Below are positions 60,997-63,113 of a stretch of DNA of 64,000 nucleotides, one piece after another. This DNA is from Octopus vulgaris (Eukaryota), in contig CATOCA020000001.1 of NCBI GenBank assembly GCA_951406725.2, positions 2,604,001 to 2,668,000 on the forward strand, written 5' to 3'. The notes under the pieces were generated by a model that saw only the letters and a list, made by a program, of their open reading frames with translations, did no database searches and was not told the DNA's origin. Position 1 is the stretch's first letter. Each line of letters begins with the position of its first letter. A program made the translations under genes and the position numbers.

Positions 60997-61165
60997 TATA
61001 AACATAACAATGAAATACGAATATAAACATGAAAAGTAAAAACCTAAATTGAAAGAGGCGATTAAAATTTTTTCCTAACCTGCAGCCGTTTGTTGTACGA
61101 AGTATTCGAAATTCAGCCCTCCTTCCTCAGGGTTCCTTTCTCGAGGTAAAATCCAGCAGTAAGGC

Positions 61166-62912
61166 TGATTTTTTTATTACCCACTAAGGGGCTACGAAGA
61201 GTGCCGGACATAACAAAACATGGGGACACAGAACATTATAATTAAATTTTATGAACATGAAGTGTTAAACGAAAAAATGATAAAATGAAAGCGACACCAA
61301 CGGCCCCGTCCGTCAGCATCACTTACCTGTCCTTTGTTTTTCATAGTCACTTGAATGTTCTTTGCCAATATGAATAAATTCCATATCCATTCTTACTCCG
61401 AAATACTCATTCATATTTTCCACGAATTCATCGCTCATTCTTATATCTTTCACCTCCCAATTTTCCTTTTCACACCTCCCCATAAACTCACCTATGTTCT
61501 TTTTTTCAATCACAGCATACCTAGTCTCTCCAACATCATACCGTTTATACTCTTCCATTAGACTTTTAACTTCCCTCTGTTCAGTCATAGTACAAATGTA
61601 CGGCCTGGGTTCGATTTCAATCTCTTGTGTGTGTGTATTCTTTTTTTTTTTTTGTTTTCTTGTTGGTGGGGAGCGGGTGGGTTCAATGTCTGCATGGATA
61701 GGGTGGGACTCAGAGGGTGTGGGAGGTTTTGGGGTAGATTGGAGTTCCATATTATTTTCTTTTTTTCCACATATTTTTCTCTTCCTCTTACTTCCAACTT
61801 CCTTCCATGTCTGTGTATTCTCTTCCTCTGTTTCCTTCTCCTCTGGTTTCTGCTTCTCTCTCTCTGGTTCGGGATCCATTTCTTTCCCTGGGGGAGGGCA
61901 GAAGGCTCTTATGTGACCCCTCAGGCCACACTTGTAACAACGTGGAGCCCTGCCCTCCACCCACACTCTCATGATCACTTCTCCCAGTCTGATGCTTTCC
62001 GTCAGGTCCACCAGTACCTCGGTCTCTGCCTGTACGTTCAGCTCCACTGTTACTCCTCTCCAGCCCTCGGACTTAACCGAGGCATGGAGAATATCTACTT
62101 CGTCCTCGTGGCCGCTGATCACAGCCGCCACAATCCATTCTGCCTCCACGTTTGGTGGCACTCCCTCCACCCTTATTCGTGTAATCCTCCTGTTTAAATA
62201 CGTAGGTAACAGTGTTACCTTTTCCGACTTCACCGCCTTCGCTGCCATCTTCCTCGCTGCAGATTCACTTTTAAAGTGCACAACTACGGTCCCGTACTTG
62301 GATCCTCGAGTCAGAAAATTTATTTCCTCCTCAGTTCTTCGCAGGGCTTCCTGTATCCATTCCATGGTTACAACTTCTACCCTCTTCCTTTCGTTTGCGA
62401 ACACCCTGTAAACAATGGTCCTCTTATCATACCATTCTTTTCTCCTGGGTGTCGGTGATAGTTCCACCTCACCGCTTTCCTTTTTCATGTATTTCTGGTA
62501 ACTTGGCAACTTGGCCATGTCGACCCCTTTCTCTTCCGCCTTCTTGGTTACACCGGCATAGGTATAACCCAGCTTCTTTTCCAATTCCCTTGCTGCCATA
62601 TCTAGCTCCTTCTCAGACATAGGCAAGTCTGATAAAGACTCAAAAACTCCAGCCTTTTCCTCCATCAGCTTCACTGCAATTGCCTGTTCCAGTTCCTCAT
62701 CCGTCGTGGATAAGTCTGTTAGCGACTCATAGTCCATTTCCTTCTGTCTGACAGACCGAAAACGGCCGCCAAAACAGAAAAAGTGTAACGCGCTGAACGA
62801 GCGAAACGCGAAACCGCGTCAACGCCGTTCAGAATTTCCACAACAACAACAACCTTTTTTGTTCTTTTTTACCGAATTTTCAGGAGCCGAAAAAAAAAAC
62901 GACTGAGCAGAA
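61166..62912 (-). mobile_element. Putative ORF1-only non-autonomous non-LTR retroposon (~1.75 kb)
   Basis: Minus strand: GCCTGACTGCT | ~175-nt 5' UTR | 472-aa ORF | ~150-nt T-rich 3' UTR | AATAAAAAAAATCA | GCCTTACTGCT. The flanks are an 11-bp direct repeat with 1 mismatch, at 62913-62923 and 61155-61165. No RT or endonuclease ORF follows. Confidence 0.6.
61319..62737 (-). CDS. Gag-like/ORF1p nucleic-acid-binding protein with CCHC zinc knuckle (L1/Tx1-type ORF1-like), 472 aa
   Basis: Uninterrupted ATG-to-stop ORF. It has CYKCGLRGHIRAFC (CX2CX4HX4C) preceded by a probable RRM-like alpha/beta region (TRIRVEGVPPNVEAEWIVAAV...MRVWVEGR) and followed by a charged linker and a TWKEVGSKRKRK basic motif. 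Confidence 0.85.
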   Translation of the reverse strand: MDYESLTDLSTTDEELEQAIAVKLMEEKAGVFESLSDLPMSEKELDMAARELEKKLGYTYAGVTKKAEEKGVDMAKLPSYQKYMKKESGEVELSPTPRRKEWYDKRTIVYRVFANERKRVEVVTMEWIQEALRRTEEEINFLTRGSKYGTVVVHFKSESAARKMAAKAVKSEKVTLLPTYLNRRITRIRVEGVPPNVEAEWIVAAVISGHEDEVDILHASVKSEGWRGVTVELNVQAETEVLVDLTESIRLGEVIMRVWVEGRAPRCYKCGLRGHIRAFCPPPGKEMDPEPEREKQKPEEKETEEENTQTWKEVGSKRKRKICGKKENNMELQSTPKPPTPSESHPIHADIEPTRSPPTRKQKKKKNTHTQEIEIEPRPYICTMTEQREVKSLMEEYKRYDVGETRYAVIEKKNIGEFMGRCEKENWEVKDIRMSDEFVENMNEYFGVRMDMEFIHIGKEHSSDYEKQRTGK

Positions 62913-63113
62913 AGCAGTCAGGCACTACATAGTGAGTATTCAAGTTGTGAAAGTTCAGTTTTTGTGTATCTATAAATAATTATTTCAAGAGAATTACCAC
63001 ATTTAAATAAGAAATGAAAATCATTTAAGTTAATCATGCAATTTTGGGAATATTCCATTTTTTACTGATATATACTACAATAACAAAGAAATTATTTAAG
63101 ATTTTAGATTTTT

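Follow-up and report, generated by a model that had tools for sequence, protein, structure and literature searches.

A site-specific ORF1-only retroposon family in Octopus vulgaris and its probable Tx1-like partner LINE

A 64,000-nucleotide stretch of the Octopus vulgaris genome (contig CATOCA020000001.1, positions 2,604,001 to 2,668,000; hereafter the window) carries a 1.75-kb unit that is a recent copy of an ORF1-only retroposon family, one that encodes its own protein, is probably mobilised in trans by a Tx1-like LINE, homes to particular sites and stacks at them. We refer to this family as A. A first-pass annotation, made from the letters of the window, had proposed that the family is non-autonomous, encodes ORF1 alone and depends on a partner of L1/Tx1 type, and the proposal is borne out by the many copies, the absence of ORF2 at 127 of 127 ORF1 ends, a tail held in common with LINEs that encode an endonuclease and reverse transcriptase (EN-RT), selection on the protein, and empty sites.

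The anatomy of the unit is given in Table 1. The intact minus-strand ORF with its CCHC knuckle is present as first annotated, and it is indeed the sole intact complex ORF: among the 69 ORFs listed for the window, all other long ones are low-complexity, satellite-derived, overlapping with the A frame, or LINE fragments. The CpG-containing leader, the T-rich 3' UTR, the AATAAA and the 11-bp repeat with one mismatch could each be located in the sequence. The AATAAA had been described as merging into an A-tract, but the tract consists of only seven A followed by TCA, and because this short end recurs in many copies, the unit closes in a terminus that hardly varies, unlike a poly(A) of changing length. 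Elsewhere in the window, positions 1-39287 hold a 48-bp satellite (819 copies, 97% match) that is open in several frames, positions 39281-40099 a 22-bp array, and positions 42318-56377 a degenerate TA repeat of about 14 kb.

Table 1. Features of the window unit and of the repeat that hosts it
Feature	Position in window	Strand	Basis
ORF1, family A, 472 aa, intact	61319..62737	-	ORF translation
5' copy of 11-bp target-site duplication, one mismatch	62913..62923	-	Single in empty paralogues L072 and L075
3' copy of target-site duplication, landing site in host repeat T2	61155..61165	-	Empty paralogues
5' leader, CpG-containing	62738..62912	-	Start like host landing site, then T-rich start common to family A
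3' UTR, T-rich, ending in shared tail of ~45 nt (AATAAA, 7 A, TCA)	61166..61318	-	Tail alignment
AATAAA	61178-61173	-	Read from sequence
Predicted tandem RRM domains, ~aa 107-260	61958..62419	-	Model, pLDDT 95.6; Foldseek
CCHC zinc knuckle, aa 267-280	61898..61939	-	Conserved in 8 of 8 ORF1 types aligned
Host repeat T2, composite, multicopy, 8 kb or longer, element antisense within	56609..64000	+	Helitron-like 5' end

The 11-bp repeat that flanks the unit is a true target-site duplication, because two near-identical empty paralogues (loci L072 and L075), in which the flanks are joined, hold the 11-mer only once. The L072 locus is 99.86% identical to the window over 4229 bp downstream and 97.9% identical over 8823 bp upstream. 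The reading of the repeats as a duplicated target, as opposed to constant parts of the element, is upheld at this locus; yet the same 11-mer is also found at the 5' end of related units within arrays elsewhere, so that it is both a duplication at the window and a carried leader in the lineage of the window copy. Another insertion into T2, at locus C22, lies in an allele 96% identical to that of the window and is flanked by a duplication of 18 bp. Because of these differences and of the near-identical empty T2 paralogues, the window insertion is recent and independent of the C22 insertion.

The genome searched comprises 2.8 Gb in 227 contigs. A DNA search with the 1.75-kb unit returned 53 matches from 12 of the 1381 candidates scored, and a search with the A protein returned 90 matches, 12 of them 99-100% identical. 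The DNA stretches examined hold 106 near-full A units (at least 1400 bp, at least 88% identity) at 27 loci, which were chosen by similarity to the window copy from an initial search that favoured arrays. A stop-free frame of at least 440 aa is kept by 46 of the 106, and the remaining 60 are without a long intact frame. In 80 stretches of 10 kb, none of the 127 complete ORF1 ends of A or B type (122 scored by pattern and 5 by eye, with 2 more cut off) is followed by an ORF2; in every case the unit's own 3' UTR and tail come next. The first-pass annotation had anticipated multiple copies with the same ends, different target-site duplications and no ORF2; copies without ORF2 are plentiful, but insertion is site-specific and most of the copies examined lie in head-to-tail arrays. 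Contigs of sequencing runs contain the A lineage with 2-3 differences in 4 of 23 listed runs, the tandem junction in one and the window insertion in none, and they are uninformative on expression.

Examination of the 472-aa ORF1 with Pfam gave only a zf-CCHC hit below the cut-off (E 0.069) and no L1 ORF1 match. A search of cluster representatives with the ORF1 core (aa 90-282, 193 aa) gave 321 relatives at E<=0.001. A fold from the single sequence was unusable (pLDDT 39.6); with a 74-row alignment of relatives the core models as two RRMs at a pLDDT of 95.6, with the CCHC knuckle beyond them, and Foldseek lists RNA-binding proteins with tandem RRMs as the matches of this model (best E 3.5e-5, TM 0.3-0.4). 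What had first been described as a zinc-knuckle protein is therefore predicted to be an RNA-binding protein of RRM-RRM-CCHC type, which is the usual layout of a LINE ORF1. It aligns with the ORF1 of the LINE described below at 35% identity over 236 aa (E 2e-47). The comparison of dN/dS among copies that the first-pass annotation had suggested confirms that ORF1 of the family is under purifying selection: dN/dS is ~0.1 between the ORF1-only subfamilies B1 and B2 and ~0.13 between A and B1, and within A the pN/pS of core variants is 0.20 for those shared by at least four copies versus 0.48 for singletons, values uncorrected for mutation bias. Five predicted octopus proteins (P0002-P0006, all labelled Octopus vulgaris) contain 18-28% of the A ORF fused to unrelated domains, and are probably annotation chimeras or exonised pieces.

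Head-to-tail arrays are found at 25 of the 27 A loci, in a sample from a search that favoured arrays. They mix A with other ORF1-only types, namely B, D and E, with F nearby, at 25-59% protein identity, and they often close with a LINE that has its own ORF1 and an ORF2 encoding an EN-RT of 1131 aa. The ORF2 has an APE-RT-zf-RVT domain layout, and its best PDB match is human L1 ORF2p (E 9e-65). One of its 120 listed homologues is labelled Transposon TX1 (38% identity), and it is by this label, not by a tree, and by the L1-type ORF2 that we regard the LINE as Tx1-like. A 3' tail of ~45 nt aligns across seven ORF1-only units, five LINEs and one tandem SINE, so that the autonomous LINE with a common tail that was sought as a partner is present. 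Several LINE subfamilies, 72-99% identical in amino acid sequence, could serve in this role. Judged solely by the common tail and the common insertion sites, the LINE enzyme likely mobilises the A units in trans.

Some further observations concern these ends. The ORF1 of A and of B2/B3 ends in a short motif (window 61317-61328, minus strand) that also occurs in the ORF1-ORF2 spacer of the LINE in L069, with an overlapping stop and start, and that fits the splice-donor consensus as well. The tail of the LINEs and ORF1-only units is also that of a 184-bp SINE-like unit, which forms a tandem array in L058 and in L092-L093 beyond the end of the window, with 57 tails counted beside the window. Three ORF1-only units of F type with a variant tail occur in L045/L155 (C4) and end at what we take to be the head of a common tRNA-type SINE.

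Rare clusters of A-to-G changes on the sense strand mark 3 of the 106 A copies, with 45, 19 and 9 changes and no T-to-C, and none of the 106 copies has eight or more T-to-C changes. On its 5' side the changed A rarely has a G (6 of 73 versus 182 of 544). Each cluster is confined to one unit, the next unit having 0-3 such changes, and the window copy has none. Sense-strand clusters with this 5' depletion of G fit ADAR editing before reverse transcription. The strand-specific clusters point to an RNA intermediate.

Most A loci lie in one host. T1 is a 1.2-kb repeat in which both the 5' and the 3' Helitron-like ends are visible by eye; Helitrons are marked by a 5' TC, a 3' hairpin with CTAG, and an AT or TA context. 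T2 shows the 5' end only, near 56609, and includes the remains of a putative mariner-type element together with a candidate LINE fragment of RTE-like kind; its Helitron label is likewise putative. The mariner-type remnant is a decayed mariner/Tc1-type transposase at window 57700-58810 (minus strand), and the RTE-like fragment lies at 63598-64000 (plus strand). At window 56380-56720 (plus strand) the 3' end of a T1-like Helitron-type repeat is followed directly by the T2 5' end, and this tandem junction recurs at the C8 T2 locus.

In a sample biased to the best matches, 23 of the 27 A loci are in T1, two are in T2 and two are elsewhere; a share above 20% of flanks of one kind is what has been used to recognise target preference (PMC4494074). 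Of 30 T1 copies, 20 are empty, and the other 10, the query among them, are all interrupted at the same junction. Among 20 T2 copies, 11 (one being the window) have an insertion tail of this group within ~100 bp and 9, L072 and L075 among them, are without a full insertion there; some of the filled copies have one common junction. The window unit is antisense to T2 and the T1 arrays are in sense. In addition, a LINE of another subfamily (C31c) ends at the exact T2 position of the window unit. Insertion of the A family is site-specific.

The landing sites were also inspected for other features. In T1, for example at L117, the site lies within a decayed fragment that by eye reads like the ORF1 core of the same LINE group. 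Tail-only micro-insertions of ~15-40 nt occur in the T2 hot zone at L081 and L147-L148, and empty T2 alleles measure 70-133 nt there, a length variation that perhaps represents footprints of earlier insertions. A hammerhead-like word 3' of the site raised the idea of a hammerhead retrozyme, which was rejected: Rfam searches of three loci (E<=1) and of a 321-bp stretch (E<=10) gave no hit and no such fold is present. The same searches gave no snRNA or other RNA gene as a target.

Several results favour stepwise insertion into the arrays, among them a 3'-to-5' SNP ladder described below. Within the arrays, junction variants are common to different families: 42 of 82 pairs match within an array versus 258 of 1261 between arrays (0 of 2000 permutations). 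The nearest relative of 63 of 102 units is in another array. Against a purely stepwise course, adjacent junctions do not match better than in a within-array shuffle (40 versus 41.1 of 136, p 0.64), and sequence distance follows position in only two of four arrays (C2b, p 0.012; C8, p 0.04; C14, p 0.14; C17b, p 0.64). C8 contains a duplicated block, and neighbour pairs recur as clades in different arrays, which fits multi-unit transcripts. Array growth is most likely a mixture of stepwise insertion and other routes.

The 14-copy C2 array, which lies in T1, identifies the lineage from which the window copy appears to derive. Derived SNPs build up stepwise from 3' to 5' along this array. The haplotype of its 5' end is that of the window copy, which stands at 2-6 substitutions from eight of the nine 5' units; the derived haplotype of these units is also present in the last C22 unit. 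Seven C2 junctions reproduce the 3' junction of the window copy. The T2-type leader is found at eight exact places genome-wide, three in T2 and five inside T1 arrays. Both dispersed copies of the window haplotype, at the window and C22, are at the T2 site, versus 0 of 24 other A loci, a link of lineage to site that concerns two events, was seen post hoc and comes from loci selected by similarity to the window copy. Taken together, this pattern suggests that site sequence on the RNA ends may steer insertion and could seed new landing pads. However, the T2 nick position may be set by the LINE enzyme alone, because a LINE whose ends are not known to bear T2 sequence goes to that position as well.

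Several explanations of the unit and its relatives have to be weighed. A domesticated ORF1 retrogene, which the first-pass annotation had named as its alternative and which would be expected as a single conserved copy, could draw on the intact frame under purifying selection and on a ZCCHC3-like atlas match at 0.90; a LINE with a one-off deletion would have homologues that all carry ORF2. Both are refuted by the existence of over 100 dispersed copies, by the 60 of 106 units that lack a long intact frame, by the empty paralogues and by the lack of any ORF2-linked version at the 127 ORF1 ends. Spread mainly as DNA, by tandem duplication or as cargo of the Helitron-like hosts, is refuted for the window copy by its near-identical empty paralogues and target-site duplication. 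For the family at large it is very improbable: near-identical blocks in C8 and C4b, the multicopy host repeats and the common junction of some filled T2 copies are in its favour, but the A-to-G clusters and the presence of different families at the same T1 junction are not.

It is likewise unlikely, if less so, that the arrays are single polycistronic transcripts or products of template jumping, with the window copy a lone first unit. In each of the nine T1 arrays in which its ORF2 was seen, the LINE stands 3' of every ORF1-only unit, neighbour pairs recur and foreign leaders occur at internal junctions, as this explanation would have it. However, the order and content of units vary between arrays, the C22 LINEs are 5' of the A units, A-to-G editing stops at unit borders, and junction variants go with the locus, whichever family a unit is of, alongside the stepwise SNP ladder. 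A more serious possibility, though still less likely than not, is that the insertion complex docks on promoter factors and inserts ~30 bp past a TATA box, so that arrays grow promoter-proximally and borrow the promoter. The 5' junction of host and array in T1 is 24-29 nt after TATAAAG in 14 of 22 loci measured by pattern, with the other 8 alike, two T2 junctions are ~28-30 nt after a TATA-like word, many unit leaders start in host sequence, and edited and derived copies lie towards the array 5' end. Against this, the window site stands at a distance of 86 nt from that TATA-like word and of 55 nt from the following one, T2 insertions spread over ~100 bp, and the T1 TATA word lies within the decayed ORF1-like fragment, where a start site is putative. 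Promoter docking is compatible, as a second layer, with a site-homing ORF1-only family served by a LINE.

For that preferred explanation the following steps can be proposed. The protein that A encodes, predicted to be of RRM-RRM-CCHC type, would likely package the A RNA. Reverse transcription would likely be provided in trans by the Tx1-type LINE with the same 3' tail and the same sites, whose endonuclease would nick a few preferred sites in the two Helitron-like repeats T1 and T2. At the 5' end of each insertion a site would tend to be restored or brought along, and later copies of several ORF1-only families could then stack head to tail, mostly unit by unit, with some DNA-level tandem duplication probably adding to the stacks. 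Transcripts would often extend at their ends into sequence of the host or of a neighbour. The source of the window copy would be the lineage that makes up the 5' two-thirds of C2 and has the T2 site at its ends; base pairing between such ends and nicked DNA probably aided the return of this copy to T2. A bolder extension, which we consider possible but doubtful, is that targeting is self-programming: an ORF1-only element would capture its landing site on its RNA ends, seed new pads with it at unrelated loci and steer its daughters to matching sites, so that target choice is inherited by the lineage, with several passenger families relying on a single LINE enzyme.

With these findings, the range of LINE derivatives that encode only ORF1 comes to include a site-specific, Tx1-like lineage of a mollusc. 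Several old ORF1-only families under selection beside one kind of helper bear on why ORF1p is needed in cis. The window copy offers a natural test case, as it is very young and stands alone, its empty sites are near-identical and its source lineage can be traced, and targeting set by the enzyme, by the promoter or by the RNA flanks makes different predictions for it. Flank-guided targeting, if true, would be relevant to methods of gene insertion that are based on retrotransposons. The arrays also mislead gene annotation, pieces of the A ORF being present in several predicted octopus proteins. Among the literature listings and abstracts searched we found no description of ORF1-only Tx1 partners or of such arrays, although repeat libraries, Repbase, Dfam, supplements and subscription papers may hold the families. 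The main text of a 2026 paper on O. vulgaris repeats (PMC13282606) has 'Tx1' once in a table and never 'ORF1' or 'non-autonomous'.

Non-autonomous LINEs that retain ORF1 are described from the L1, Jockey and CR1 clades as HAL1 (half-L1), HeT-A and Ag-Sponge (PMC5753468, PMC5786205). Similar to these, A encodes ORF1p alone, keeps a LINE 5' part and 3' tail and is one of several families; unlike them as described, it goes with a Tx1-like LINE, in a mollusc, and is site-specific and found in mixed arrays. With ORF1p only, multiple copies bearing marks of retrotransposition, an ORF1 homologous to that of the LINE, selection and a common tail, A works like HAL1, but it is not HAL1 in the strict sense, being from octopus and having an RRM-RRM-CCHC protein with no L1 ORF1 Pfam match. 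Targeting of DNA transposons is described for Tx1L, which targets Tx1D, and for Tx1-Mar and SINEU-3, which target Mariner-N4_AMi; tandem SINEU-3 copies sandwich the target-site duplication, and co-transcription with the flanks was proposed to strengthen targeting (PMC4494074). The octopus system likewise has a putative non-autonomous DNA transposon as its target, and dependents that share it. In contrast to that description, the octopus dependents encode a protein and form at least five ORF1 families (25-59% identity), the arrays reach at least 15 units in at least two hosts, and the 5' ends of units are themselves sites.

New R1 copies in Drosophila 28S genes enter the target-site duplication at the 5' end of an earlier copy, and target sequence on the RNA 5' end leads to precise junctions and short target deletions (PMC2718515). 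Precise junctions and short target deletions are also seen at T1. However, R1 is an autonomous element directed to rDNA, with two to three copies on average, and ORF1-only partners are absent from its description in that paper. Finally, HeT-A, TART and TAHRE make up polar head-to-tail rows of ORF1-only and autonomous elements (PMC5537684), as the octopus arrays do in mixing both kinds of element. These elements are described as telomeric members of the Jockey clade added to chromosome ends, whereas the octopus arrays are interstitial, occupy many loci and show target-site duplications or deletions.
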